Shown: piece after piece, positions 1,089 through 64,000 of the stretch
Layout of the letters: every line of letters begins with the position of its first letter
Position numbering within the stretch: position 1 is the first letter of the stretch
DNA from: Solirubrobacterales bacterium
Lineage (GTDB): Bacteria > Actinomycetota > Thermoleophilia > Solirubrobacterales > 70-9
NCBI GenBank assembly: GCA_035548675.1
Contig: DASZSJ010000016.1
Location: 796 to 64,795 of the forward strand
Direction: 5' to 3'
Length of the DNA: 64,000 nucleotides
Notes under the pieces: model-generated
Seen by the model: the letters and a program-made list of their open reading frames with translations, nothing else
Database searches by the model: none
What the model was told of the DNA's origin: nothing
Made by a program: the position numbers and the translations under genes

Positions 1089-1278
1089 GGTAGTGGGTCG
1101 CCCGCACGGTGCCGCGCGATCTATTTGCCACCGCATACGTGGGTCAATCGATCGCACGGCACCGCGTCCTCGTCCAAGGCGCGGCTCAGGCGCCACAGGG
1201 CTCGCAACCTCGGTCGCCCTTTGCTCCGGAGTTCTGTTGAATCGACCCTCCAGGGTCGATTCGAACTGACCCACTACC
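1089..1278 (+). mobile_element. family A structured repeat, copy 1; MITE-like
   Basis: It has 11-bp perfect terminal inverted repeats: ggtagtgggtc at 1089-1099 and gacccactacc at 1268-1278. A 7-bp direct repeat cgcttca flanks it at 1082-1088 and 1279-1285. The core tttgccaccgcatacgtgggtcaatcga lies at 1124-1151. Confidence 0.6.
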
Positions 1279-4544: not shown

Positions 4545-7388
<2,844 letters not shown>

Positions 7389-16401: not shown

Positions 16402-16530
16402 GCCCCCCGCCCGCGTGGTGCTCGATGCCGAGTGTTCGATTTGCCACCGTATATGGGGGTCAATCGAACACTCAGCGCCGCGGGCTCGCCCAAAGTGCGG
16501 CTCAGGTCCCTTGCTCACGGGAATTCCGTG
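16402..16530 (+). repeat. family A structured repeat, copy 3 (inside the adk-map intercistronic gap)
   Basis: Core tttgccaccgtatatgggggtcaatcga at 16440-16467, flanked by the complementary stems gagtgttcga and tcgaacactc. Confidence 0.7.
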
Positions 16531-37515: not shown

Positions 37516-37703
37516 TTGGCGCTTCCGGTGCAAGCGTGCCGCACGTCCCGGTAGCGGGCCAGCTTGACACTCCCGCAAGGGAGATCGACCAGCAGCTTCG
37601 CGATCGTGTTCTTGGCTGCGCCGCTCAGAGCAAGATGCTGCTGCGACCCAGGCGATCGATTCCACGGCGCCAGCCGAGGAATCGCTACCCCTTCCCCCCC
37701 TCA

Positions 37704-37911
37704 GTGGGTCGCCCACGCGCTGCCCTGCGATCGATTTGCCACCGTATAGGTGGGTCAATCGATCGCAGGGCAGCGCGGGCTCCTCCAAGGTGCGGCTCAG
37801 GCGCCACAGGGCTCGCAAGCTCGGTGCCCTTTGCTCGTGGGGTTCTGTTGTGCTCGTGGGGTTCTGTCGAATCGACTGGCTTAGGGCGACTCAAGCTGAG
37901 CCAGTGCCCAC
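37704..37911 (+). repeat. family A structured repeat, copy 4 (longest, with an internal 19-nt tandem duplication)
   Basis: Core tttgccaccgtataggtgggtcaatcga at 37735-37762, enclosed by a perfect 18-bp stem (gcgctgccctgcgatcga / tcgatcgcagggcagcgc). Bases 37832-37850 are duplicated at 37851-37869. Confidence 0.7.
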
Positions 37912-52611: not shown

Positions 52612-53074
52612 GTCGTCATCAACGAGAAATCGAGAGTTCCGGCGATTGACGAGTCCGCTTTGGAGCGGCTGAGCGTTGCGCTCGACCAGGAGGGGGTAGT
52701 CGCCACCACGCTGATTGGCTCGCAGGCGCGCGGGACACCCGGTCCGCTTTCGGATGTCGACATCGCTGTTTGGCACGACGAGGGACTCGATCCTGCCGAT
52801 CGTTTGCGTCTTCAGCTCAACCTGGCATTGGCCGCCTGGCGGGCTCTTGGCACGGACGAGATCGACATCGTCATGCTCAATAAGGCTTCGCCGCTACTGC
52901 GCTAGTAGAGGGGCGACTAGAGACGCACGGCTGCTGGTGGAGCGTGATCCGGTTGCTCGGGTTCGGCTCGACGCGCGGGCGCTTCTCAACCACCTCGACA
53001 CCAAGCCGCTGAGAGCGGAGATGTCACGGGGCCTTCCCAAGCGGATACAGGAGGGTCGCTTTGGTCGACCCTGA
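52612..53074 (+). pseudogene. MntA-like nucleotidyltransferase antitoxin, decayed copy
   Basis: It aligns with the intact paralog 53781..54251 (VVINEKSRVP.ID..AL.RLS.ALDQ...GSQARGT.GPLSDVDIAVWHD). The start codon is GCG instead of ATG, with an in-frame stop just upstream. There is a stop at 52903 and a frameshift around 52885-52900. Confidence 0.8.
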
Positions 53075-53240
53075 GAGCGTTGACGCCTGGCTCGAGCACC
53101 TTTCGAGTTGCTCGCCGAGTCGGAGCGCCTACCTGGAGGTGGATGACGACAAGGTTTGGGACGCCGTCGGCACCTCGACGACCTGCGCGCATTCGCCGCG
53201 ATCGTCCAGCGATTCGAGGGCCGACCACCGCGCCGGGCCG
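53061..53240 (+). pseudogene. HepT-like (DUF86/HEPN) toxin remnant
   Basis: LVDPESVDAWLEHL... and, in another frame, HLDDLRAFAAIVQRFEG match the N- and C-termini of HepT 53366..53836. The middle of the gene, including the RX4H motif, is missing. Confidence 0.6.
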
Positions 53241-53263
53241 TAGGTCGCATCCGCGACCTACGG

Positions 53264-53362
53264 CTGAAAGGCTGACGAGCCGCCGCTTCAGGAGTGGGAT
53301 TGCGGCGGTTATGCGACCGGGATGCGACTCGTCCGGCGCGGTCGTTTCGACCGAAGGTCAAG
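53264..53362 (+). repeat. family R repeat, copy 1 (long form)
   Basis: ctgaaaggctgacgag...ggagtgggattgcggcggttATGCGACcgggATGCGACtcgtccggcgcggtcgtttcGACCGAAGGTCAAG. It ends 3 nt before the HepT stop codon. Confidence 0.75.
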
Positions 53363-53365
53363 GGC

Positions 53366-53836
53366 TTAGTCGCCGGTTGAATCGCCTTCGGAATGGGCCA
53401 GTTGTTCGACGGTGGACCCGAACTCGCGTAGATCGTCGAGGTGCGCCAGTGAGGCAAACACCGCGCGATCGTCGATCTCTAGATACAGGTGCACTATGAG
53501 ATTGCGCTGTTTGGCCGCCTCCGCTAGTCGCTGTGCAAGTTGAGCTGGAATGACGCCGCCCTGCCCGAGGGTCGTGAAAACGTCGGCATAGTCGGATGGA
53601 GGCTGCGCCGATTGCTCGCTGACGAGCTGGGTGCCGAGGTCGATGCAGATCTGGACCGCCACCTGTAGCCAGCGCTCGGCTGCGGCACGCTGCTGCTCGT
53701 CGGCGAGATAGGCGTCCTCCCCGGCCCGACGCACCTCGTCGAGACGCTCGATCAGCCCCTCGAGCCGCTGTATCCGGGCTTCAACCCGGTTCGCGTCGAC
53801 CAAAGCGCCCTTCCCGTATCCGGCGACGCACACCAC
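53366..53836 (-). CDS. hepT: HepT-like HEPN (DUF86) RNase toxin
   Basis: RX4H motif RNLIVH and DUF86-like helices (RWLQVAVQICIDLGTQL). The start is uncertain: GTG at 53836 or TTG at 53806. It overlaps mntA. Confidence 0.75.
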   Translation of the reverse strand: MVCVAGYGKGALVDANRVEARIQRLEGLIERLDEVRRAGEDAYLADEQQRAAAERWLQVAVQICIDLGTQLVSEQSAQPPSDYADVFTTLGQGGVIPAQLAQRLAEAAKQRNLIVHLYLEIDDRAVFASLAHLDDLREFGSTVEQLAHSEGDSTGD

Positions 53837-54251
53837 GACCCAACTCTTCGCGCAGCGGCACCGTGTCGAGGTAATCCAAGATCGCTCGCGTCTCCAACCG
53901 GACCCGTTCGTCGTGATCCCGCTCGACCAGGCGCTTGGCGTCGCGGATGGCGCGATGGCACATCAGCGGTGGCGCGTGATTGAGCAAGACAATGTCGATC
54001 TCGTCGGTGCCCAGTGCCCGCCCGGCCTCACACGCGATCTTCAATTGAAGATCGAGGCGACCACGGGGATCGAGGGCGGGGTCATGCCAGACGGCGATGT
54101 CAACGTCCGACAGTGGGCCGACGGTCCCACGGGCCTGCGATCCGATCAGCATCGCGGCAACGACGTTGTCTTGGTCCAGAGCGTGACTGAGCCGCTTCAA
54201 AGCAGCATCGTCGATCGGCGGAACTCGCGATTTCTCGTTGATGACGACCAT
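53781..54251 (-). CDS. mntA: MntA-like nucleotidyltransferase antitoxin
   Basis: Minimal nucleotidyltransferase motif GSQARG...SDVDIAV. It lies upstream of hepT and overlaps it. Confidence 0.8.
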   Translation of the reverse strand: MVVINEKSRVPPIDDAALKRLSHALDQDNVVAAMLIGSQARGTVGPLSDVDIAVWHDPALDPRGRLDLQLKIACEAGRALGTDEIDIVLLNHAPPLMCHRAIRDAKRLVERDHDERVRLETRAILDYLDTVPLREELGRGVRRRIREGRFGRREPG

Positions 54252-54312
54252 TGCCTACATCGTCCCCGATCACCCGGACCGAGTCCAATCTGATCGGACG
54301 TACGATCCGCCG

Positions 54313-54456
54313 ATGAACGTGCGGAGCATGCGCCCCGATGAAGTCGACGCCGCGGTCAGCGTGTGGCGCGAAGCCAACAACGCCCGTGGTGCGCCGCACG
54401 GGCCTGAGCGCACAGCTCGCATCCGCGTGAAACTCTCAGCCCCGGACGCACTGCCC
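54313..54456 (+). pseudogene. GNAT acetyltransferase N-terminal fragment (48 codons)
   Basis: MNVRSMRPDEVDAAVSVWREANNARGAPHGPERTARIRVKLSAPDALP matches the first 48 aa of the GNAT gene at 56706. About 15 nt of upstream sequence are shared too. Homology stops abruptly. Confidence 0.8.
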
Positions 54457-54522
54457 GGAACGCCTCGGCGCGCCTCGGCACCACGTTTCAAGAGGAACCG
54501 CCGCAAACGGCTCTGCACCGGG

Positions 54523-54590
54523 CTGAAGGTGGGCCGCTTGGGGAGTGGGGTTGCGAGGGTGATGCGACCGAAATGCGACCACCAGCAACT
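54523..54590 (+). repeat. family R repeat, copy 2 (short form)
   Basis: ctgaaggtgggccgcttggggagtggggttgcgagggtgATGCGACCgaaATGCGACCaccagcaact. The Fic stop codon follows at 54599. Confidence 0.75.
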
Positions 54591-54598
54591 GATTGGCG

Positions 54599-55777
54599 CT
54601 ACGACGAAATGATCTGCACCACCTCAGGCGCTACATAGAGGCGAGCATTTCGAGAAAGCCGCGCGTGCGCTGGTTCCAAAATATTCAGTGACACGAGGGT
54701 GTTGATCGCATTCTGGGCGCCCTGACCCGACAAGCCAAGGCGCTTGGCAACCCAGGGCCGATCGACGTAAGGACGACCAACTAGATCGGCGGCCAGTCGC
54801 TCGGCAGAGCCTCGCTTGTTCGCATCTTGCACTCGACGGCGCAACTGCTCCTGCAGGGCGACCAGGCCCTCGACTTTCTGCTGAGAGTCAAGGGCTGATG
54901 CAGCAACACCCTCAGCAAAGAAGCTGACCCACCGATCCCAGTCCCCATTGCAGCTGAGGCGCATGAGTTCCTCTTGATAGAGGTCGCGGCGTTTCTCAAA
55001 CCACGGAGAGACCACGAGGAGCGGCTCTCGGATGACCGCACCGCGCAGCAGCTGAACGATCACCAGTAGGCGGCCGAGCCTCCCGTTCCCGTCGGAGTAG
55101 GGATGGAGCGACTCAAACTGATAGTGACCAAGCGCCGCAAGGACGACTGTCGGCAGTTCAGGAGGCGAAGCGATCCATGCGAGCAACTCCTCGACGCCAC
55201 CGCGCAACTGGTCGCCCGGGGGCGGGGGCACGAATCGCGCCTCATCAAACCCGGCGCCACGAGCGCCGATGACAACGATTCGGTCGCGGAGCCCTCCGGC
55301 ATCGGATAGCTCGCCGGCGGTGTCGCGAACGAGTGTCTTCTGCAAATCACCCAACATGCCGATTGTGAGTGCGCGATCTTCAGGCCAAGAGAAGGCAAGC
55401 TCAGCCATCCGCTCAAAGTTGAGGACCTCAACCAGCTCAGCGGAGAGCTGCTGCCGATCGTCGCCCTCCGCCGCGAGAACGTCGGCGAATGGAGCGTATG
55501 TCCCCTCCAGCGCGCTCGTACTCTGCGCCTCACGGCGCAGGGTGGGTCGACGAAGGAGCGAGGGCTCGGGAATACGCCGTGCCGCGCCGTCGAGTCGAGC
55601 CAGCGCTGCGGTCGCCGAGTTAACGACGTTCCAGGTCTTCGTTGAGAGCACGATCTCTCGGGGCAACGGATCGGGCAGGAAAGCTTCGCCCTCGACCATC
55701 TCGTGAGTAACTGGATCCGGTCCAAGAATGGGAATTAGGCTGCCGATGGGGCTCTGCTCAAGAGTGGCCGTATCCAC
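54599..55777 (-). CDS. Fic/DOC family protein with an N-terminal inhibitory motif and a C-terminal wHTH-like region
   Basis: Fic motif HPYSDGNGRLGR and inhibitory-helix-like STSALEG. GTG start. Confidence 0.85.
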   Translation of the reverse strand: MDTATLEQSPIGSLIPILGPDPVTHEMVEGEAFLPDPLPREIVLSTKTWNVVNSATAALARLDGAARRIPEPSLLRRPTLRREAQSTSALEGTYAPFADVLAAEGDDRQQLSAELVEVLNFERMAELAFSWPEDRALTIGMLGDLQKTLVRDTAGELSDAGGLRDRIVVIGARGAGFDEARFVPPPPGDQLRGGVEELLAWIASPPELPTVVLAALGHYQFESLHPYSDGNGRLGRLLVIVQLLRGAVIREPLLVVSPWFEKRRDLYQEELMRLSCNGDWDRWVSFFAEGVAASALDSQQKVEGLVALQEQLRRRVQDANKRGSAERLAADLVGRPYVDRPWVAKRLGLSGQGAQNAINTLVSLNILEPAHARLSRNARLYVAPEVVQIISS

Positions 55778-55809
55778 AGACGCAAATATATCGCCTAAAA
55801 TTTGCGTCT
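55778..55809. promoter_or_regulatory. perfect 10-bp inverted repeat abutting the Fic start codon
   Basis: agacgcaaat, then a 12-nt AT-rich loop, then atttgcgtct. It begins 1 nt upstream of the GTG. It could be an operator, or the terminator of the upstream nucleotidyltransferase gene. Confidence 0.45.
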
Positions 55810-55917
55810 AGCTATGGACAACGCAAGTTGTCTTGTGCCCACAGAAGAATTCCCTGGAAATGAGCCGGTAACGAGCGAGCGAGGGCCAGTAGATCGCCGG
55901 GTAGATCCGGCTTTCGC

Positions 55918-56259
55918 TCATCCGGCAAGGACGCGGCCCTGCGATAGGGCTGCGTGGACGAGGCCGCCGCGGACTTCCCGCCAACGATCGGCATAGTCGC
56001 GACTTACCACGACCACATCTGCCGGCATACGCAAATCGCGCAGGGTCCGGTGCAGTCGCACCGACTCCTCGGCCTCATTGGCGACCTCGGGCTCAACGAC
56101 AAGGAAATCGACATCGCTATGTGGGTGGGCCTCTCCGCGGGCATGGGAGCCAAAAAGAACCACCTGCGCATTGGGGGCAGCAGCAGCCAAGCGGCGTCCC
56201 GCCTCGGCAATCAGCGCATCGTCAATGGCTCTCATCGTCGGAATGGTAGTCGTCGCCAT
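55918..56259 (-). CDS. minimal nucleotidyltransferase (MNT-type), no cognate HEPN ORF evident
   Basis: GSHARGEAHPHSDVDFLVV. It is clearly paralogous (about 70% aa identity by eye) to 59654..60001. Confidence 0.75.
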   Translation of the reverse strand: MATTTIPTMRAIDDALIAEAGRRLAAAAPNAQVVLFGSHARGEAHPHSDVDFLVVEPEVANEAEESVRLHRTLRDLRMPADVVVVSRDYADRWREVRGGLVHAALSQGRVLAG

Positions 56260-56355
56260 GGATCGAGCCCGGCACCACTCTGGTTGTCATCCCGGAGCTC
56301 CGATGCCACTCGACCTCATTCCACAATGAGAGTTCTTGTCTGCGACGATTGACCC

Positions 56356-56706
56356 GTGCTGAAGCTCGTATCGCTCAAGAACACATGCACCGCGTGTCCA
56401 TCCCAGTGGGAGGGAACCCTTGAGGACGGCCGGGCAATCTATGCGCGCTATCGCCACGGCGAACTGAGCGTGGGCGTCGGCAATGACATCAACGAGGCGG
56501 TCCGAAACGGAATGTCCGATCGAGCTCTTTATGCGAACGACACAGGCAACGGACTCGATGGATTCATGGACTTCCAGGAACTGAAGGCCCAGATGCATGG
56601 GCTACTGGAGTTCCCTGCAGATCTAGACGAGCACGATCGTCGACCGAAACTGCGATCCCGAAATGCCGAGAAAGCTGCTCGCGCTGCCCGACGTACGATT
56701 CGTTGA
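56356..56706 (+). CDS. hypothetical protein (116 aa)
   Basis: GTG start. The stop overlaps the GNAT start as TGATG. It contains CTACPSQWEG. I recognise no family. Confidence 0.5.
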   Translation: MLKLVSLKNTCTACPSQWEGTLEDGRAIYARYRHGELSVGVGNDINEAVRNGMSDRALYANDTGNGLDGFMDFQELKAQMHGLLEFPADLDEHDRRPKLRSRNAEKAARAARRTIR

Positions 56707-57326
56707 TGAACGTGCGCGCCATGCACCCCGGTGAGATCGACGCTGCGGTCAGCGTGTGGCGCGAGGCCAACGTCGCCCGTGGCGCTCCGCATGGGCCTGC
56801 GCGTACCGAGCGAATCCGCGCGAAACTCTCAGCCCCAGACGCACTGCCGTGCGTCGCGTTGCGCCCAGACATCGTAGGCATGGCGCTCGCCGAGCCCGGG
56901 AGGCTCGATGACGGCGCAGGAGACCTCGATCCAACACTCCTGCACATCTCGATGGTTTTCGTTCGTCCCGCTGCACAGCGCACAGGAGTCGGGCTCCCTC
57001 TTGTCATGTACGTCCTCGACGTCGCACGGTCGAGCGGTTACAGACGAGTGCGAGTTTGGACGACGCAGGAGAACCGCGCGGCTCGCAAGCTCTACGAGAG
57101 AGCTGGGATGACCCCCACTGGCAAAACCACTCCCCTCCGGTCGAGCGTGGCTCTCCAGTACGAATGCCCGGTAGAAGAATCACGGCGCCAAGACCTCGGT
57201 GTCGATGACGTTGCTGACCTTTGGGCCGAGATCACGCCGGCATCTGAAGACGAGAGTCTCGAGCTCGCCGGGGACGAGCTCCGTGCGATGCGCAAGGAGA
57301 AACACACCAAGGAGGGTCAAAGCTAA
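56706..57326 (+). CDS. GNAT family N-acetyltransferase with an acidic C-terminal extension
   Basis: Acetyl-CoA-binding motif A-like VFVRPAAQRTGVGLPL and ENRAARKLYERAGM. Confidence 0.8.
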   Translation: MNVRAMHPGEIDAAVSVWREANVARGAPHGPARTERIRAKLSAPDALPCVALRPDIVGMALAEPGRLDDGAGDLDPTLLHISMVFVRPAAQRTGVGLPLVMYVLDVARSSGYRRVRVWTTQENRAARKLYERAGMTPTGKTTPLRSSVALQYECPVEESRRQDLGVDDVADLWAEITPASEDESLELAGDELRAMRKEKHTKEGQS

Positions 57327-57328
57327 TC

Positions 57329-57547
57329 GTGCGAAGGCCTCTGCGACGCGTCTTCCTTCTACTTGGCACCTATGTGGCTCTCTTGGCGGCCGTCGTCTTC
57401 GCGGGCTTCCTGGGAAGCGCAATTGGTATTTGGGCCGCGATCCTCTGGGGCGTCGGAGTCATCAGCGGGCTCGTCATCTATGGACGCCGACGCCTGAATC
57501 GATCCCGGAGTCAAATCGCTCTAGAAGGCCAGCCTCCATCGGATTGA
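57329..57547 (+). CDS. small membrane protein (72 aa, 2 TM segments)
   Basis: GTG start 2 nt after the GNAT stop. It has hydrophobic segments. Its stop lies inside family R copy 3. Confidence 0.5.
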   Translation: MRRPLRRVFLLLGTYVALLAAVVFAGFLGSAIGIWAAILWGVGVISGLVIYGRRRLNRSRSQIALEGQPPSD

Positions 57548-57617
57548 AAGGACGGAGGTCTTCCGTACGGAGAGTGGCTTTGCCGAGGTGATGCGACCGA
57601 AATGCGACCGGCAACTC
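57543..57617 (+). repeat. family R repeat, copy 3 (short form)
   Basis: attgaaaggacggaggtcttccgtacggagagtggctttgccgaggtgATGCGACCgaaATGCGACCggcaact. The VapC stop codon is at 57616. Confidence 0.75.
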
Positions 57618-57993
57618 AGGGCACGCGGATGTCGACGAGATCTTCAATCAACTTGAAGTCGTCGGCGTTCAGGGTCAGCAGGGGCACGCCGTGAACATTC
57701 GCGGTCGCGGCAATCGCCAGGTCGAAGGCGCGGCGCCGGGGCTGGCCGCCACGCTGCGCCACGGCTGCATAAAGGCGACCGCATTCGCGCGCCGCCGCCG
57801 CCTCGAAGGGCAGAGGGTCGAAGCTCTCCTCGATTGTGCCGAGCCGGCGCAGGCGTACAGCCCGGACCTCCTCATCCGCCGCGACCAAGACACCGAAGTG
57901 AAGCTCGGTGAGCGAGACGACGCTGATCGCGACATCCTCATCGGGATCCTCGCTGCCGCGTATGAGGACCGACGTGTCAAGCAGGGCCGGCAC
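57616..57993 (-). CDS. vapC: PIN-domain toxin VapC
   Basis: MPALLDTSVLI..., with conserved acidic residues and downstream-of-antitoxin gene order. Confidence 0.85.
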   Translation of the reverse strand: MPALLDTSVLIRGSEDPDEDVAISVVSLTELHFGVLVAADEEVRAVRLRRLGTIEESFDPLPFEAAAARECGRLYAAVAQRGGQPRRRAFDLAIAATANVHGVPLLTLNADDFKLIEDLVDIRVP

Positions 57994-58000
57994 CGAGCCG

Positions 58001-58246
58001 TTACAGCGCCCAGGGGTCGCGAAGTTCGCCGCCTACCTTCTCGAGGTCGGCCTCGAGGGTCGGGTCGACGGGCGCCCTCCAGAGCTCAGCGAGCTGTGAG
58101 CTCGGCACCCAGCGCCGGCCCTTGGCAGGCCCCAGGGAAGCGACTGGCCGTCCAGAAACAGTGATCGTCAGCTCCTCGCCCGCTTCGGCGCGACGCAGCA
58201 CCTCGCCAACGTTGTTGCGCAGTTCCTTCTGGGGAATCGTCGCCAC
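58001..58246 (-). CDS. Phd/YefM-type antitoxin
   Basis: MATIPQKELRNNVGEVLRRAEAGEELTITVSGRPVA. It lies immediately upstream of vapC. Confidence 0.8.
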   Translation of the reverse strand: MATIPQKELRNNVGEVLRRAEAGEELTITVSGRPVASLGPAKGRRWVPSSQLAELWRAPVDPTLEADLEKVGGELRDPWAL

Positions 58247-58306
58247 AGTCCCACGGTAGCAGTTCTGCTACCTGCGAGGGTCTTCGGTTCTGCTGGAAGC
58301 CGTTGA

Positions 58307-58825
58307 CTACTTTTCGACCCCGCAGAGCTCGAGGTCATCGCGCTTCGCCATCCACTGAGCGGTCCGATCGGACATGGCCGCTTTGAGGGAAAGGAGTTTT
58401 GCCGTTGCGACATTACCTTTTTCCATTTCCTTGGCCGTCTCTTTGATCAGCCCCAGCGTTTCCTCGTCTTTTTCCAGCACGGCTTCAATTGCATGGGAAT
58501 CTCCGCTAGGAGGCTCGAGTTCCCGCAGTTCCCGAATCCCCTGTTCGGACTTAGGAAGAACCTTGCGAAGGATGGCAGCGAATTCCGCGACTTCCTCAGG
58601 ATCGTCAAGCCCCGATTCATTTAGTCGATCCAGCTTTTTATTCCAGGCGGCGACATCTTCGTCTTCATCCGCTGCCTGACAGATTTCATCAGCCCGAGCG
58701 ATCCATTCGGACTTGCTCAGATCCCCACTCGCTGACGTAGATCCGGTCGAATTAGAGGAACCCTCTCCGCAGCCTGCCAGAAGAGCAAGCCCCGCCAACA
58801 ACGCCATCAGACACGCTCTCCGCAT
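58307..58825 (-). CDS. lipoprotein of unknown function
   Basis: Internal ATG giving MRRACLMALLAGLALLAGCGEG (lipobox LAGC). Lower GC than the core genome. Confidence 0.6.
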   Translation of the reverse strand: MRRACLMALLAGLALLAGCGEGSSNSTGSTSASGDLSKSEWIARADEICQAADEDEDVAAWNKKLDRLNESGLDDPEEVAEFAAILRKVLPKSEQGIRELRELEPPSGDSHAIEAVLEKDEETLGLIKETAKEMEKGNVATAKLLSLKAAMSDRTAQWMAKRDDLELCGVEK

Positions 58826-58938
58826 CGTCTCCCCTACTCGTTCAGGGCCGAAGCCTACAGATGCACCCTTCCCATCCCGAGGCCACTTGACGTTCCATGC
58901 CTGAAACACCGCCGCTCTACCAAGCCACTATTGATCGT

Positions 58939-59040
58939 ATTGAAAGGCCGAGGGGCGTCTGCATGGCGAGCGGACTAGCTTCGATTGTGTGACCGAGATG
59001 CGACTTGCCGGTGCGGTCGTTTCTACCGAAGGACAAGCGC
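58939..59040 (+). repeat. family R repeat, copy 4 (long form, first half-site degenerate)
   Basis: attgaaaggccgagggg...gtgtgaccgagATGCGACttgccggtgcggtcgtttctACCGAAGGACAAG. The stop of the 59048..59335 ORF follows at 59048. Confidence 0.7.
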
Positions 59041-59047
59041 TCCAACG

Positions 59048-59335
59048 TTAGACAGCCGCGAGGGCCGGCGCGAGGTCGTCGGCGCTCGCTTTGACCGACT
59101 CCGGAATCGTGATGCGAAGTTCGCCATCGCGATCGAGGATCGCTTGAGCACCCAAAACAGTGAGACCGACGATTCGTTGAGTGCCAGGCTCGAAGCGCAG
59201 GACATGACCCTCGGGCGTCTCCTCGCCCTCCGCCTCTTTGGGCTCGCCGACATGCAAATAGAGCACGTCGTTCTCAGCGTCATAGTCTGCGTGGTCGAAG
59301 GCGACCGGGCCAATTCTGATGTTCACTTGCTCCAT
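59048..59335 (-). CDS. DUF2283-like small protein (putative antitoxin)
   Basis: YDAENDVLYLHVGEP...G.V.GLTVL is a DUF2283-like pattern. Family assignment is from memory and has not been searched. Confidence 0.5.
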   Translation of the reverse strand: MEQVNIRIGPVAFDHADYDAENDVLYLHVGEPKEAEGEETPEGHVLRFEPGTQRIVGLTVLGAQAILDRDGELRITIPESVKASADDLAPALAAV

Positions 59336-59634
59336 GAGCGTGGATCCTTCCGATTACCGAACGCAGAGATGACCCGCGCTGGCTCCTGTTCATAGCTTAC
59401 GACCACCAACAGCCAGCGACTAGGGCCCGCGCCGCGCAGGTAGTGGCGCCTGCGCTGCTCGTAAGCGGGATCCGGCAAGACGCGGTCCGGTTCAGCAACG
59501 GCCCTCAATACGTCAGCGAGATAAGGCGCCAACTCGGGATGACCTCGCAGAATCTTGTCACGCCAGAGATCAGCGGGCACGATCACCCGAACGCCTGCCG
59601 GATCTTTTCCCTCCCCAGCCTCGCCATTCATCAT
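59323..59634 (-). CDS. hypothetical protein, possible DUF4258-like toxin
   Basis: 103 aa. It overlaps the downstream DUF2283-like gene by 13 nt. The start is uncertain and the family assignment tentative. Confidence 0.4.
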   Translation of the reverse strand: MMNGEAGEGKDPAGVRVIVPADLWRDKILRGHPELAPYLADVLRAVAEPDRVLPDPAYEQRRRHYLRGAGPSRWLLVVVSYEQEPARVISAFGNRKDPRSWSK

Positions 59635-59653
59635 CGGAAGTCGCCGCCCGTGT

Positions 59654-60001
59654 TCATCCGGCGAGGACCCGTCCCTGCGAGAGAGCGGCGCGGACGAACC
59701 CCCCAGGCACGTCGCGCCAGCGGTCCACGTAGTCGCAGCTCAGGACTAGAACGCTGGCCGGAACTCGCAGATCGCGCAAGGTGCGATGAAGACGCACCGA
59801 CTCCTCAGCCTCGTTTGCGACTTCGGGCTCTACGACAAGGAAGTCAATATCGCTATAGGGACTTGCCGAGCCGCAGGCGTACGAACCAAACAAAATGATC
59901 TGCGCCTCGGGTGCAGCAATAGCTAGGCGGTGCCCTGCCTCCGTGATCAGGGCCTCATCGACTGTCCGCATGATCGAAATCATAGATACAACCGCAGACA
60001 A
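59654..60001 (-). CDS. minimal nucleotidyltransferase (MNT-type), paralog of 55918..56259
   Basis: GSYACGSASPYSDIDFLVVEPEVANEAEESVRLHRTLRDL. The start is uncertain: TTG at 60001, or an internal ATG. Confidence 0.7.
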   Translation of the reverse strand: MSAVVSMISIMRTVDEALITEAGHRLAIAAPEAQIILFGSYACGSASPYSDIDFLVVEPEVANEAEESVRLHRTLRDLRVPASVLVLSCDYVDRWRDVPGGFVRAALSQGRVLAG

Positions 60002-60560
60002 CTCGTATCATTCCTCCATGGCTCACGAGCAGCTCATAACAACGCCGCGAGGGCATCCAGCCGCGCGTAGTGCTGCCGTCACGACGCCGCACCTCGCCGC
60101 CCTCATTGTCGACGGCACAGTACGGCCGAGCGAAGGACCTCGGTACCTACCCCAGCCGACGAGCCTCGGGGGCGCCGGCAAAAGCGCGGCGGACTACATA
60201 AGCGATGGGCGTCGCTGAGGCCCTACATCCCTTGCGCCGAGAGCACGCGCCTCGGGCTCGTCATATCACCCGACAAACCCCGTAAATGGCGATGGAGCAT
60301 GGCGGGGTAAGCGGTGCATCCCGCGCTAACAAATCGAGCCTCCGGTCGACCAGTTGAACGCGGCCCTATCTATTCAAGGCCTGGGACGCAACCTGCCTGG
60401 CCGAAGCTTTTCTCGCAAAATGGGGGACTTCAGGCGTATCTTGATAGGTCTTGGCACTCTTCCAAAAGAGTGCCAGCTATGGTGCAAATGCTTCTGGCAG
60501 GGGAAAGCAAGGCCGCCATTGGGTTGAGCGGCCGGACAAATTCCGACAAGGAGGCATCGA

Positions 60561-60719
60561 ATGGCAAAGGTGGGTCCGTATCACTCCAAGGCCCCCAACG
60601 ACCGCAAGGTCTACCACGATCACAACAATTGCACCGAGGGCAACAACATCGAGACGTACAACAAAGTCTCGGGCACAGGCGGATACCCTCGCTGCGATCA
60701 CTGCCAGCGCCTCGGCTAG
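60561..60719 (+). CDS. small Cys/His-containing protein (52 aa)
   Basis: Not in the ORF track. A strong SD (aaggagg) lies 7 nt upstream of the ATG. My translation: MAKVGPYHSKAPNDRKVYHDHNNCTEGNNIETYNKVSGTGGYPRCDHCQRLG. Confidence 0.55.
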   Translation: MAKVGPYHSKAPNDRKVYHDHNNCTEGNNIETYNKVSGTGGYPRCDHCQRLG

Positions 60720-60796
60720 CGCGACGCTAGCGGCCTCGGCCTGAGCAAGCTATTGCTAGGCCCGCCCTGTTCGCCAAGGCGAGCCTTTGCGAAGCA

Positions 60797-60832
60797 GTCG
60801 ACTACGCAGGGGCTTTCCCCTGCGTAGTCGAC
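60797..60832. terminator. perfect 16-bp-stem hairpin between the small Cys gene and the 537-aa gene
   Basis: gtcgactacgcagggg, then cttt, then cccctgcgtagtcgac. No U-tract follows. Confidence 0.5.
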
Positions 60833-60928
60833 ACAGATTCCACTGGCGCTTTCTGCAAGTTCACCACACTCAGAGAAGTTCATCGCCGACGACAAATCTT
60901 CACTAACCGACGCGACTAAGGAACTTAC

Positions 60929-62542
60929 TTGCCACAAAAACCGCGACAGCAACGAATTACTCTTTTCCTGCTGAAGGAGGGTATCGACGACGAGGAAATC
61001 TGGATTCAAACCAGTATTGCCGAACAAACCCAGGTGGCGGCAGGGGGACTGAAGGGCACACTTTCCGTCGGCCACAATAAAAGCTCAACCCCAAAATGGT
61101 CGAAGTACTTGCGAGACCATGTGACAGGCACTCGGCTTGCGGACCTTCGGAACCGCTCAACAGCGGCTGCGCTCCTCTTTGAAACATCTGAACGCCAGTT
61201 TGTCGCCTGCTTTGGCTACGGACGCTCAATGATCAATCTAGAGCTTTGCGAGCCAGACTTTGGACTCAAGGTCGTCGTGAATTCAATCAAACCGAACCGC
61301 CTGAAGAGCATTGACGCGCGGGGCTTTGAGGAGATCACCCGTAATACAAAGCGTGATGTCAGTCGCGAGTCGGCGCTAAGCGCTTTCGAGATCGACGTTG
61401 AGCGAGATGTTGTTCGGTCGCTAACCGGAGCACCCGAGGATGAGGAACTCGCAAAGCGACTTAGCGGCGCTGACGCTCTGGGTCTCAACACTAAACGCCA
61501 GTTGCCAGAACTATCGAAACTGTGTGATGAGCTACTCAATGCCTACAAGTCGACCCGCTATCGAGAGCGGGGGTTTGGGTTTATCGATCACCTGCGACGT
61601 GTAACCAATAAGGGCGAGAAGGCCGAACTCGACGATGCTCTGGTTCAAGCCCTAAATGAGGGCGGCGACGCGCTAGACGATCTGCACTTGGCGATTCCAG
61701 AGGCTATCGACTGGCTGGCCGTGGATGGAATTCGCCTAAGTGGAGAACGCAAAGGAAACAAATTGCATGCTGACCCCTCTGTAAGCGCTTATCTGCGCCT
61801 ACGCGCAGATAAAGAGATTGATCTACCTAGGCTCAAGCGCGATCAAGTCTTGGCTATGGGCGCTGAGACCGAGGCGCCGATTGGGCACTGGTCAATCTAC
61901 CGATGCATCGTCTACCAGACCCGACGTAACGGCCGCCTCTACGTTCTTAGCGCAGGTGATTGGTTTTGGGTGGCCGAGAGCTACGTACAAAAAGTGACCG
62001 ATTACGTTGCGCAGCTACCCGAACTTGAGATCGATCTGCCGGACTGTGCTCCCAACTCACGCGAGGATGCCTATAACCTCGCAGCTGCTGAGGCAACTGG
62101 GTGCCTCTGCCTTGATGGGAAATTTGTAACTGAATCGGTCCCCGATAACGTCGAGGTATGTGACTTGCTCAGCCCGGATCGAAAGCTGATCCATGTTAAG
62201 AAGCGTGGATCTTCCTCAACCCTTAGTCACCTCTTCAACCAAGGGGTTAATTCGGCCGAATGGCTACGTGAGGATCCTGCGTTCAGAACCGAGGCTCGGG
62301 AGATGGCGAGTGAGATCAATCCACAGATTGCCGAAGCACTGCCTTCCGGTGAATTCGAGCCGAGTGACTACGAGGTTGCATTCGTCGTTATCACTAGAAG
62401 TGAACGTGACTCTCCATTGACATTGCCTTTCTTTAGCTTGGTCAGCTTGCGTAATGCAGCTCGTACACTTCGACATCAAGGCTATCGGGTGACTGTAAAG
62501 GCCGTGAAAGAGCCGCGAGAGACTGGCAAAGAAACGGAATAA
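60929..62542 (+). CDS. 537-aa protein resembling the TIGR04141/DUF6119 sporadically distributed family; possible PD-(D/E)xK-like nuclease
   Basis: TTG start with aagga 8 nt upstream. GC is markedly lower than its surroundings. The C-terminal motif is DLLSPDRKLIHVKKRGSSSTLSHLFNQG. Family assignment is from memory and has not been searched. Confidence 0.6.
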   Translation: MPQKPRQQRITLFLLKEGIDDEEIWIQTSIAEQTQVAAGGLKGTLSVGHNKSSTPKWSKYLRDHVTGTRLADLRNRSTAAALLFETSERQFVACFGYGRSMINLELCEPDFGLKVVVNSIKPNRLKSIDARGFEEITRNTKRDVSRESALSAFEIDVERDVVRSLTGAPEDEELAKRLSGADALGLNTKRQLPELSKLCDELLNAYKSTRYRERGFGFIDHLRRVTNKGEKAELDDALVQALNEGGDALDDLHLAIPEAIDWLAVDGIRLSGERKGNKLHADPSVSAYLRLRADKEIDLPRLKRDQVLAMGAETEAPIGHWSIYRCIVYQTRRNGRLYVLSAGDWFWVAESYVQKVTDYVAQLPELEIDLPDCAPNSREDAYNLAAAEATGCLCLDGKFVTESVPDNVEVCDLLSPDRKLIHVKKRGSSSTLSHLFNQGVNSAEWLREDPAFRTEAREMASEINPQIAEALPSGEFEPSDYEVAFVVITRSERDSPLTLPFFSLVSLRNAARTLRHQGYRVTVKAVKEPRETGKETE

Positions 62543-62583: not shown

Positions 62584-63675
62584 TTACCCAATTGCACCTT
62601 TTACCTTCCCGAAGCTCTCCCTCGTTGGATGCGTATAGCGAGCCAGCATTGTCTCGACGCGGTGGCCGGCGATCTCGGCCAGGTCGGCGTCGTTGATGCC
62701 GGCGGCGCGGAGGTGGGTGACGTAGGAGTGGCGGCACTCGTGGGGGCGGATGTCTAGGCCGGAGGCCTTCTGGGTGGGGTGCCAGAGGTCCCGGTAGAAG
62801 TTGCGCTCGCGCCACATGCGGCCGGTGGGGGTCGTGAAGAGGAGATCGCAGTCCTCGGCATTGAGCTGGATCTGGGCTTCGATCATCCAGGCGAGGGTCG
62901 CCGGGACAGGAACGGTCCTCCCCGCGTCGTGCTCGCCGTGGTCGGTCTTGGTGCCGTCGAGGATCACGCCCTCGTGGGCGGTCCTTCTGACCTTCAACGT
63001 CTCTCCGTCGAAGTCCTCACGCTTCAGCGGGAGCACCTCCCCCAGCCTCATGCCGGTATCGGTGAAGACGCGGACCATTGCCTCGTAGCGACCGGCCGCC
63101 TTGGCGAAGGTGTGCATCTGCTCGAAGCTGAAGACGCGGATCGGTCGGCGCTTCTTCTTTGCCCTCGGGTCGTTGGATCTGACTCGAACGCCCTTGAAGG
63201 GGTTGAGGTCGGCCACTTCGTCGGTGATCGCGTCCTCGGCCATTGCCGATAGAGCGCGGAGGATGCCGACGACGCCGGTTGTGGCTCTGCCCTGGACTCG
63301 CAGCATGTGGTCAACCAGGGCGAGGGCGTGGCGTCGGCGCAGCTCGCGCATGGGCCACTGCTTGAGTGGGACGCCCTCTACCTCGACCTCGAGTACGCGG
63401 CTGATCCGATGCTCGTTGGTCTCGTTGGTGCGATCCGAGCGCGGGTGATGGGTCGGCCAGGTGGCGAAGTACTCACCCAGGGTGTCGGGGCGGTCTGAGA
63501 GCCCGTAGGCCTCGTCTATCGCTTGCTGGGCTTCGCGCTTGAGCTTGAAGGTCCCCTTCCCACGATTCCAGCGGGGCTTGGCGATTCGGTGTTTGCCGTC
63601 GCTGCCGGTGTATCTGGCGACCCAGACGATCTCGCCGGAGGGGTTGCGACGTTTGACCGGCGACTCTCGCCTCAC
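62584..63675 (-). CDS. int: tyrosine-type site-specific integrase
   Basis: Catalytic residues in context: TGMRLGEV (R), HECRHSY (HxxR) and LARYTH (Y). The GTG start overlaps the xis stop as GTGA. Confidence 0.85.
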   Translation of the reverse strand: MRRESPVKRRNPSGEIVWVARYTGSDGKHRIAKPRWNRGKGTFKLKREAQQAIDEAYGLSDRPDTLGEYFATWPTHHPRSDRTNETNEHRISRVLEVEVEGVPLKQWPMRELRRRHALALVDHMLRVQGRATTGVVGILRALSAMAEDAITDEVADLNPFKGVRVRSNDPRAKKKRRPIRVFSFEQMHTFAKAAGRYEAMVRVFTDTGMRLGEVLPLKREDFDGETLKVRRTAHEGVILDGTKTDHGEHDAGRTVPVPATLAWMIEAQIQLNAEDCDLLFTTPTGRMWRERNFYRDLWHPTQKASGLDIRPHECRHSYVTHLRAAGINDADLAEIAGHRVETMLARYTHPTRESFGKVKGAIG

Positions 63676-63863
63676 GAAGCCTCCCTTCGCTGGGCAAGGA
63701 AGGCGTCTACGTCGGCTGGGTCTATCCGTCGGGAAGCTCCGAGCTTGTAGGAGGGCAGGTCTCCCCTCCTGATCCAGTTGCGGATCGTGCGGTCCGAGAC
63801 GGCGAGATAGGCGGCAAGGGTGCGCTCGGTAAAGAAGGTGATCGACCGGGCATTTCTCTCCAT
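63672..63863 (-). CDS. xis: excisionase-family helix-turn-helix DNA-binding protein
   Basis: ATG at 63863 preceded by AGGAGGG. TERTLAAYLAVSDRTIRNWIRRGDLPSYKLG is typical of an excisionase HTH. Confidence 0.75.
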   Translation of the reverse strand: MERNARSITFFTERTLAAYLAVSDRTIRNWIRRGDLPSYKLGASRRIDPADVDAFLAQRREAS

Positions 63864-63913: not shown

Positions 63914-63927
63914 GACCGAAGGTCAAG
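63914..63927. repeat. 14-nt motif GACCGAAGGTCAAG, candidate att core
   Basis: Identical to 53349-53362 (end of R copy 1) and 12 of 14 identical to 59024-59037 (end of R copy 4). It lies 51 nt outside the xis start. Confidence 0.4.
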
Positions 63928-64000
63928 CCCCTCGCCGGGCCTCCATACAGGCGGCCTCCGCACGGCGAAGCCGTGCCACAATCGGCCGCCGGAGGCCCGG

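Follow-up and report, generated by a model that had tools for sequence, protein, structure and literature searches.

A repeat at toxin-antitoxin module boundaries in a Solirubrobacterales genomic island is probably an arm of a lambda-type integrase attachment site

Introduction

What kind of sequence recurs, always in the same orientation, directly behind one unrelated toxin-antitoxin gene after another? The question is raised by 64,000 nucleotides of a Solirubrobacterales bacterium (Actinomycetota; assembly GCA_035548675.1, contig DASZSJ010000016.1), referred to here as the window. Between positions 53241 and 59040, the window has four copies of a repeat, R, all in one shared orientation and each 60-100 nt long. 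An initial annotation placed each copy behind the last gene of a minus-strand module and saw in them either attC-like cassette boundaries or serial attachment (att) scars with arm-type recombinase sites. Our analysis favors the second reading. R is very probably the integrase-distal arm (P arm), the left core half-site and the 7-bp overlap of an att site belonging to a lambda-type tyrosine integrase.

Results

Four copies of R in the window

A repeat search grouped four sequences, at 53276-53329, 54527-54580, 57556-57609 and 58952-59005, with 63-78% identity. The same four, and only these, were found when a profile built from 114 copies in other genomes only was run on the 64-kb window. E-values were 3e-16 for R1, 4e-16 for R3, 5e-14 for R4 and 7e-13 for R2, and the fifth-ranked match had E=0.55. 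No R was found in the remaining 52 kb of the window. The 19-mer ATGCGACCGAAATGCGACC, with up to 3 mismatches allowed, occurred three times against 0.05 expected, and R4 has the variant GTGTGACCGAGATGCGACT. Positions and orientation given by the initial annotation were reproduced in both searches, as were its two direct ATGCGAC half-sites, present in all four copies. These ATGCGAC(C/T) pairs start 11 bp apart, at 53311/53322, 54562/54573, 57591/57602 and 58986/58997.

All copies are read on the minus strand. R1 (53264-53363), the terminal attR arm, is of a long form. It has the core CTTTCAG at 53264-53270, predicted arm-type repeats at 53311-53318 and 53322-53329, and a long-form box at 53330-53363 that holds GACCGAAGGTCAA at 53349-53361. 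R2 (54523-54590) and R3 (57544-57617) are internal att arms. R2 has the core variant CCTTCAG at 54523-54529 and predicted arm-type repeats at 54562-54569 and 54573-54580; R3 has the core CTTTCAA at 57544-57550 and predicted repeats at 57591-57598 and 57602-57609. R4 (58939-59040), again of the long form, closes the integrase-bearing element, with its core at 58939-58945, predicted arm-type repeats at 58986-58993 (GTGTGACC) and 58997-59004, and the long-form box at 59005-59040. The annotated extension common to R1 and R4, GGTCGTTTC(G/T)ACCGAAGG(T/A)CAAG, was confirmed. Its box TTGACCTTCGGTCGAAACGACCGCACCGGACAA was found at a fixed distance, 19 nt upstream, in 23 of the 145 copies of the wider survey described below, R1 and R4 included.

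Each of the four copies begins 3-8 nt past a minus-strand stop codon; the median gap in other loci is 16 nt. The gene calls behind the annotated minus-strand modules hold by Pfam. The one-sided layout does not, as plus-strand genes also point to R2 (a GNAT fragment) and to R3 (a GNAT gene and a small membrane open reading frame, ORF).

The core of R is the anticodon loop of a tRNA

The letters 'tgaa(a)gg' that open every R correspond to TTGAAAG on the plus strand. Read on the minus strand, this is the 7-bp core CTTTCAA, which is the anticodon loop of the target tRNA. ARAGORN found no tRNA in the window, since the target tRNA lies outside it. The window's own contig (locus L015), fetched via the exact integrase sequence, extends past the window end and has the tRNA at L015 5182-5277. 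This corresponds to ~65436-65531 in window coordinates, ~1.4 kb past the window end. CTTTCAA is the sole stretch common to the target tRNA and all R copies, and no homology of R to the tRNA 5' half beyond the 7-bp loop was seen by eye in the alignment.

The window contains ~10.8 kb of a ~12.2-kb island. Its order on the minus strand is attL (tRNA), xis, int, cargo, R4, cassette, R3, cassette, R2, cassette, R1 and a truncated tRNA 3' half. This last part is at 53241-53263 (minus strand) and is the remnant of the displaced tRNA 3' half, on the B' side of the terminal attR. Directly past the R1 core, minus-strand 53251-53263 reads CCGTAGGTCGCGG. It matches GCCGAAGGTCGCGAG..., the anticodon-stem 3' strand, variable loop and T-stem start that come after the terminal R in L009, L022, L027 and others, and it is cut off after ~13 nt. 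Because the tRNA 3' half starts directly after its core, R1 is the terminal attR. An R1-type copy is linked to HepT also in L009, where an intact tRNA 3' half comes next. The initial annotation had described a hairpin with an inverted half-site in front of R1. The palindrome is present at 53241-53262 and embeds CCGTAGGTCGCGG; it is better read as the truncated tRNA 3' half with an inverted duplication.

Just left of R1, at 52660-53240 (plus strand), there is a frameshifted MntA plus HepT-like remnant, convergent with the intact MntA-HepT pair, and G+C drops from ~68% to ~62% near 52 kb. Given this remnant and the lower G+C from ~52000, the present attR may have older island debris on its far side.

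The target tRNA is itself unusual. It is 96 nt long, has an Rfam tRNA score of 66 bits and carries the anticodon loop CTTTCAA (UUC). In acceptor stem, D stem and T arm it is similar to the tRNA-Arg(ACG) found in sister loci. Its D-loop has a 25-nt insertion that folds into a 6-bp hairpin, and from one locus to another compensatory changes keep the hairpin paired (GGGGTT/AGCCCC, GGTCCC/GGGACC, GGGCCC/GGGTCC and GGGTCC/GGGCCC). The same tRNA was found, in integrase-sense coordinates, at L025 3623-3718, L050 1576-1671, L053 6193-6288, L055 2686-2781 and L067 2710-2805. ARAGORN wrongly gives it as a tRNA-Ala or tRNA-Pro with an intron. Around it, Rfam with an E-value threshold gave nothing besides the tRNA, and a single literature search turned up no account of a tRNA of this kind. 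This tRNA merits a separate study.

R loci in other genomes

R was searched in one genome per species with the pattern GGTNATGCGACCGNNATGCGAC in a first scan, which gave eight informative loci, seven of them labelled as Solirubrobacterales metagenome-assembled genomes (MAGs) and one as Actinomycetes. A metagenome scan with a looser pattern added 92 loci, mostly from soil, and viral contigs scanned with the R pattern gave no match. By nhmmer profile, 145 R copies were counted in 97 loci. Two to four copies occur in 35 loci, and mixed orientation within a locus was never seen. All 27 loci with an integrase (Int) homologue, from related Solirubrobacterales, have the integrase-strand order tRNA, excisionase (Xis), Int, cargo and R copies. 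In other genomes, the displaced tRNA 3' half comes after the terminal R.

The simplest of these loci, L002, is a clean single island. It consists of a tRNA-Arg(ACG) at 3-78, xis, an int with a product 78% identical to the window Int, and 3 kb of cargo. R is at 4751-4807 on the integrase strand, with a 42-nt direct repeat of the tRNA (anticodon loop to 3' end) directly after it. The tRNA at one end and R with the tRNA repeat at the other form a textbook attL...attR pair, R being the arm inside attR.

What follows the core differs among copies. It is an intact tRNA 3' half in 32 copies, a tRNA fragment truncated at varied points in 27, a conserved sequence here called box S in 28, and other sequence in 47, most of which begin with (G/T)C(C/T)G like the tRNA half-site. 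Nearly all multi-copy loci have their tRNA-flanked R copies at the end of the array, and the exceptions (L028, L039/L107 and L067) are tandem full elements. Full attachment-site (attP)-like internal junctions were found in L028 and L067. There, R, the core and the tRNA 3' half are followed by a P' arm with TTCCR and GTCKCAT motifs, the latter paired in L028 and single in L067.

Anatomy of the attachment site

On the minus strand, R consists of two GGTCGCAT repeats 11 bp apart, a spacer of ~45 bp, the left core half-site and the 7-bp core CTTTCAA. The consensus on the integrase strand is GGTCGCAT-tTC-GGTCgCAT-CgCCGCCGCAATCCCGCTCCCCA.GCGGaCG.CCCTCgTC, followed by CTTTCAA and GCCGAAGGTC. The core is flanked by imperfect inverted repeats, CCTCCGTC on the left and (G/T)CCGA(A/T)GG on the right, the right side being also represented by GA(A/T)GGAGG or GCCGAAGG. 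Inverted repeats around a short core are the usual layout of core-type sites. Two classes of core were found: CTTTCAA, in the majority, and CTACGAA in a sister class with a normal tRNA-Arg(ACG).

The arm motif is also present on the other side of the element. GTC[GTA]CAT occurs in seven of nine attL arms, at +118 to +142 counted from where the tRNA ends, and is oriented as it is in R; it is paired 11 bp apart in six arms and single in one (L050). The background of GTCKCAT is 0.3 per kb per strand. The attL-arm motif is preceded by TTCCR repeats, two to four in number and with a ~10-bp period. To have such a pair on each arm is characteristic of the arm-type sites of a heterobivalent integrase. 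The GGTCGCAT pairs are probably bound by the N-terminal domain of Int, and the TTCCR repeats are a candidate site for Xis or another accessory protein. The core in a tRNA loop, the displaced tRNA half, the upstream integrase and the motif in the integrase-proximal arm bear out the annotated reading of serial att scars with arm-type sites.

Two further boxes belong to the site or its surroundings. The first, TTGACCTTCGGTC, is upstream of xis at 63914-63926 (minus strand), as read in the sequence, and is conserved in L002 at 338-350. It is found again at the outer end of the long-form R, as the reverse complement on the plus strand at 53349-53361 and 59023-59035. Within it, the right core half-site CCGAAGGTC is present as its reverse complement, and the box could serve as an operator or as an additional site for the integrase. 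The second is box S (TCYGATGGAGATTGGCTCTGCAGAGCGG; TCYGATGGAG.TTGGCT...AGAGCG), which is non-coding and comes directly after the core at 19-28 junctions. In the window, box S is at 57515-57543 in cassette 2, and an S-like box is at 58908-58938 in cassette 3. Box S and a conserved box ~45 nt after the tRNA in attL have GCAGAGC(C/G)G in common, and box S may be a shortened P' arm or a cassette-specific site. We also considered whether box S encodes the C-terminal end of a protein from the opposite strand, with the TGA of the core as its stop codon, and rejected this as the frames are interrupted by stops in most loci.

The integrase and its excisionase

The tyrosine integrase (62584-63675, minus strand; PF00589) has 363 aa and a GTG start at 63675. 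Among 63 homologues, the catalytic residues R210, R315 and H338 were invariant, and H312 and Y347 near-invariant. The family counts 1420 proteins at E<=1e-10, and its taxon-labelled members are mostly Solirubrobacterales. An AlphaFold2 model reached a predicted local distance difference test (pLDDT) score of 84 with the 63-sequence alignment and 36 in a single-sequence run. Its N-terminal residues 7-56 are confidently modeled as a beta-sheet plus helix (pLDDT ~80-90), in front of the core-binding and catalytic domains. In Foldseek, the top matches of the model were the Tn1549 Int and the full-length lambda Int (370-405 columns; PDB 1Z1B and 5J0N), with which the entire length of the model aligns, and IntI (2a3v) was a weaker match. 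The modeled N-terminal domain fits an arm-binding role.

Upstream of int is xis (63672-63863, minus strand), the gene of an excisionase-like HTH_17 protein (PF12728, E 2.5e-14), which overlaps the int start by 4 nt. Its position upstream of int is conserved in related loci. A conserved GC-rich hairpin (GGCGGCCGATTGTGGCACGGCTTCGCCGTGCGGAGGCCGCC) was seen upstream of xis, at 63950-63990 (minus strand) in the window and at 268-310 in L002, islands with different target tRNAs.

Cassettes recur in other orders, with breakpoints at the core

Related genomes hold the same R-bounded modules in other orders, with breakpoints at the core; this is the module-wise variation that the initial annotation had proposed to look for. 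The lipoprotein-Phd-VapC-R3 cassette (57544-58938) is ~97% identical at the nucleotide level to L005 6162-7556, with other neighbors on both sides. Among the window, L005 and L016, this VapC cassette is 97-99% identical in differing positions and contexts. It is preceded by R4 of a DUF2283 module in the window and by an R2-like copy of a Fic module in L005, and it is terminal, beside the tRNA 3' half, in L016. In L005, the Fic cassette precedes the VapC cassette; in the window, it follows. Fic-R2 is terminal and followed by the tRNA 3' half in L010, L011, L013 and L024, the last of which has the whole of cassette 2. VapC-R3 is conserved in L005, L006, L012, L016, L071, L075, L083 and L103, with at least seven different post-core sequences. 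Homology between cassettes ends at TTGAAAG in every case. One BLAST block apparently ended within R4 (59007); this was an extension through R similarity, and inspection put the breakpoint at the core. No junction of R3 with the start of its own VapC cassette, as in a circle or a tandem duplicate, was found among the fetched loci.

Traces of the array's history are preserved inside the island. Just after the R2 core, 54440-54513 (minus strand) is a P' arm remnant of an older, integrase-less element and includes GCCGAGGCGTTCCGGGC. Its local alignment to the resident P' arm (L015 5330-5400) scored 53, against a maximum of 28 in 500 shuffles. The remnant shows that the MntA-HepT-R1 unit was once a full element. 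It is fused to a GNAT fragment, which is one of two duplications in the island: the 159-nt GNAT 5' fragment at 54297-54455 is 84% identical to 56690-56848, and the MNT gene sequence at 55918-56217 is 73% identical to 59654-59953. Both duplications are consistent with recombination and decay between related elements. The tRNA remnant at R1, the P' arm remnant at R2 and the attP-like junctions of L028 and L067 together support serial integration into a regenerated tRNA, with older elements pushed distally and a subsequent loss of their integrase-proximal parts.

Cargo of the cassettes

Cassettes were defined as core-to-core intervals, and cargo families were assigned by a Pfam scan of all ORFs. 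The 35 multi-copy loci have 48 complete cassettes of 0.54-6.6 kb (median ~1.5 kb), with ORFs mainly of toxin-antitoxin families: MNT/Polbeta (15 members), Phd (11), PIN (9, plus 3 PIN_3), HepT (8), GNAT (4) and Fic (3). Cargo that was found once (L087, L026, L028, L067 and others) includes AbiEii, HEPN, an Eco57I-type restriction-modification methylase, NERD, a Ser/Thr protein kinase and an EF-Tu-like protein, as well as AAA_14/DUF4143 and a DDE transposase. DUF2283-R units were found in many loci.

In the window, three integrase-less cassettes are distal to the integrase-bearing element. Cassette 1 (53366-54251, minus strand) encodes MntA at 53781-54251 (Polbeta/NTP_transf_2) and HepT at 53366-53836 (HepT-like). 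Cassette 2 has, on the minus strand and within 54599-57543, Fic (54599-55777) and MNT (55918-56259). On its plus strand are an unknown ORF (56356-56706), GNAT (56703-57326) and the small membrane ORF (57329-57547). The genes of cassette 3 (57616-58938, minus strand) encode VapC/PIN (57616-57993), Phd (58001-58246) and a lipoprotein (58307-58909). In the integrase-bearing element, the cargo spans 59048-62542. It consists of DUF2283 (59048-59335), a weak PBECR2-like match (59323-59634) and MNT (59654-60001) on the minus strand, and of a small Cys/His-rich ORF of 52 aa (60561-60719) and DUF6119 (60929-62542) on the plus strand. The DUF6119 protein is full-length (E 1.5e-144). No replication, conjugation or phage structural genes were evident in this element.

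A second, unrelated repeat family was seen elsewhere in the window (1092-1239, 16420-16506 and 37703-37850). Its copies are 87-148 nt long and 78-84% identical, hold a long palindrome (GCGATCGATTTGCCACC...GGTGGGTCAATCGATCGC) and have no Rfam match.

Discussion

Weighing the explanations for R

The att-arm reading has to be held against explanations of other kinds. The gene-then-repeat layout, the co-orientation, the toxin-antitoxin-rich cargo and the adjoining tyrosine recombinase would all suit an attC-like integron site, folded as a single strand and used by an IntI-like integrase. However, RNAalifold on 55 diverse copies, for both strands and with RNA and DNA parameters, gave no consensus pairs, and single-copy folds of both strands were no better than shuffles (z -2.3 to +0.8). 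The repeats within R are direct and not inverted, the integrase aligns best with Tn1549 and lambda Int, and the site is tied to a tRNA gene, a fragment of which is duplicated. The mechanistic sense of the annotated attC-like boundaries was therefore abandoned, for want of a conserved hairpin on either strand, and we regard an attC-like site as very improbable. The short distance between operon stops and R would suit a structured RNA or 3'-untranslated element of the toxin operons, such as a terminator, a processing site or a small RNA. This, too, is hardly credible: no Rfam 15 match reached the gathering score anywhere in the window, R has no conserved structure, covariation or T-run, its motif pair is also in the non-transcribed arm beside int, and it ends exactly at the anticodon-loop core. 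Local duplications in the island, those of the GNAT fragment and the MNT genes, might suggest a dispersed repeat, either a repetitive extragenic palindrome (REP) or a miniature inverted-repeat transposable element (MITE), or the conserved tail of a duplicated gene. To this we give next to no credence. R is missing from the other 52 kb of the window, and the exact pattern matched once in each of the two complete 2.6-Mb MAG chromosomes that were examined, in line with the initial annotation's view that R is not a scattered REP. The genes before R are unrelated (HepT, Fic, PIN and DUF2283) and reading frames through R are not conserved, so R is not the 3' end of a duplicated coding sequence.

Whether R sites are still in use is a separate matter. 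One possibility is that they are att arms but dead scars, the array being a decaying record and the differences between genomes stemming from independent histories, deletions and homologous recombination between R copies. We judge this a serious possibility, if not a probable one. The truncated tRNA half after R1, the truncated P' arm after R2 with its GNAT fusion, and the 27 tRNA fragments truncated at differing points elsewhere all speak of decay, and at 63-78% identity R copies are alike enough for occasional homologous exchange. Yet internal copies retain the core and arm motifs although the intervening sequence drifts, and breakpoints are exactly at the 7-bp core, not at varied points inside R. 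The VapC cassette is 97-99% identical where the integrases are only ~91% identical, and the opposite cassette order in L005 and the window is impossible by deletion alone. At the other end is a working cassette system, analogous to integrons and made from lambda-type parts. Each cassette would carry its own double-stranded att arm and often, at its beginning, the 28-nt box S. A resident integrase, acting in trans at R-core junctions downstream of the tRNA gene, would cut out, take up and rearrange the cassettes, and the tRNA would not have to be disrupted. We put this forward tentatively and consider it rather unlikely. Near-identical cassettes do occupy different array positions across genomes, and judged from sequence, present-day mobility of cassettes is plausible, at somewhat less than an even chance.

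For the att-arm reading itself, we propose an integrase that targets the tRNA anticodon loop. Repeated site-specific integration at one tRNA (accretion) would build the array, and older members would lose int and xis, leaving co-oriented att sites that bound integrase-less toxin-antitoxin cassettes of 1.3-3 kb. A resident Int could then recombine attL with any R, or R with R, resulting in co-excision, deletion or reshuffling (cis-mobilization).

Several points count against this reading. R copies were gathered with a pattern that requires the arm motif, which inflates the apparent conservation in the seed copies; the motif is, however, kept in 31 of the 34 copies that fail the search pattern, so its conservation is not due to ascertainment alone. 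Assigning GGTCGCAT to Int, and not to Xis or a host factor, leans on its presence in both arms and on the analogy with lambda. Pfam gave no named arm-binding domain for the Int N-terminus at E up to 10, the catalytic-domain family being the sole match. Most internal junctions are without the tRNA 3' half that simple accretion predicts, and extra deletions or a cassette-type insertion route would thus be needed. In this genome, the tRNA half at the end of the array is incomplete, so that even an exact excision of the full island would leave the tRNA unrestored.

Relation to known systems

The closest counterparts are cis-mobilizable elements (CIMEs). In the model described for them, an element integrates and decays until it has flanking att sites but no integrase, and another element then integrates (PMC5704250). 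As in the CIMEs related to ICESt1/ICESt3 of Streptococcus thermophilus (PMC5704250), integrase-less att-bearing segments are here in direct tandem beside an integrase element of the same specificity, at the 3' part of the target gene, and the proposed origin is the same. Unlike CIMEs, the modules are very small (median ~1.5 kb), with as many as four in an array, and most of them are toxin-antitoxin operons. Neither conjugation nor replication genes are visible, and the repeated unit is an arm plus 7-bp core and not a target-gene fragment. The host is an uncultured Solirubrobacterales.

Anticodon-centered attP sites and tandem tRNA islands are already well known. Islander lists 2083 islands with an anticodon-loop-centered attP and only 4 arrays of three or more (PMC4383910), and the tycheposon islands of Prochlorococcus give a similar picture of accretion (bioRxiv 10.1101/2020.12.28.424599). 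Like those tandem islands, the arrays reported here have an anticodon-loop attP, newcomers that push older elements inward and remnants scattered through the island. In arrays of the Islander and tycheposon type, repeated tRNA fragments are the mark of recognition and each member usually has one integrase, whereas here most internal junctions keep the paired-repeat arm without a tRNA fragment and the members are without integrases.

Lambda Int is a heterobivalent integrase, and its attP has arm-type and core-type sites. The system described here is like lambda in its 7-bp overlap with inverted core sites, in arm motifs on both arms ~50-180 bp from the core, in the three-domain integrase with an adjoining Xis gene, and in the position of int beside the attL (BOP') side. 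It differs from lambda in the unrelated sequences, the target in a tRNA anticodon loop and the candidate accessory repeats (TTCCR) on the integrase-proximal arm. With integrons it shares co-oriented, promoter-poor cassettes that each end in a site of their own, toxin-antitoxin and acetyltransferase cargo, and an adjoining tyrosine recombinase. Unlike integrons, it has no folded attC hairpin, attI/Pc arrangement or IntI-type integrase, and uses a double-stranded lambda-type arm plus a core in a tRNA. The outcome resembles an integron array and the machinery that of lambda. The pdif (XerC/D) sites of Acinetobacter plasmids are 28-bp, core-only sites in alternating orientation that depend on the host XerCD. 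Modules between pdif sites are similarly small, often toxin-antitoxin, bordered by tyrosine-recombinase sites and found in varying contexts; R sites, in contrast, are ~75-115 bp long, co-oriented, have arm repeats and belong to a dedicated integrase.

Distinctive here are the small and numerous toxin-antitoxin-rich modules, the arm and core kept without a tRNA fragment at most internal junctions, box S at many of them, and the cassettes at varying positions. For the abundant uncultured Solirubrobacterales of soil, these arrays suggest a route for packaging, accumulating and exchanging small toxin-antitoxin and defense operons. Such a route would do without integrons, transposases or visible conjugation genes, and would depend on a tRNA-targeting integrase and on att arms that stay with the cargo. 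The complete predicted attP layout, with paired GGTCGCAT on both arms, TTCCR, inverted core sites and a 7-bp overlap, makes the system a potential new integrase/att pair. If cassettes do move in trans, the arrays would represent a second, mechanistically different route to integron-like arrays.

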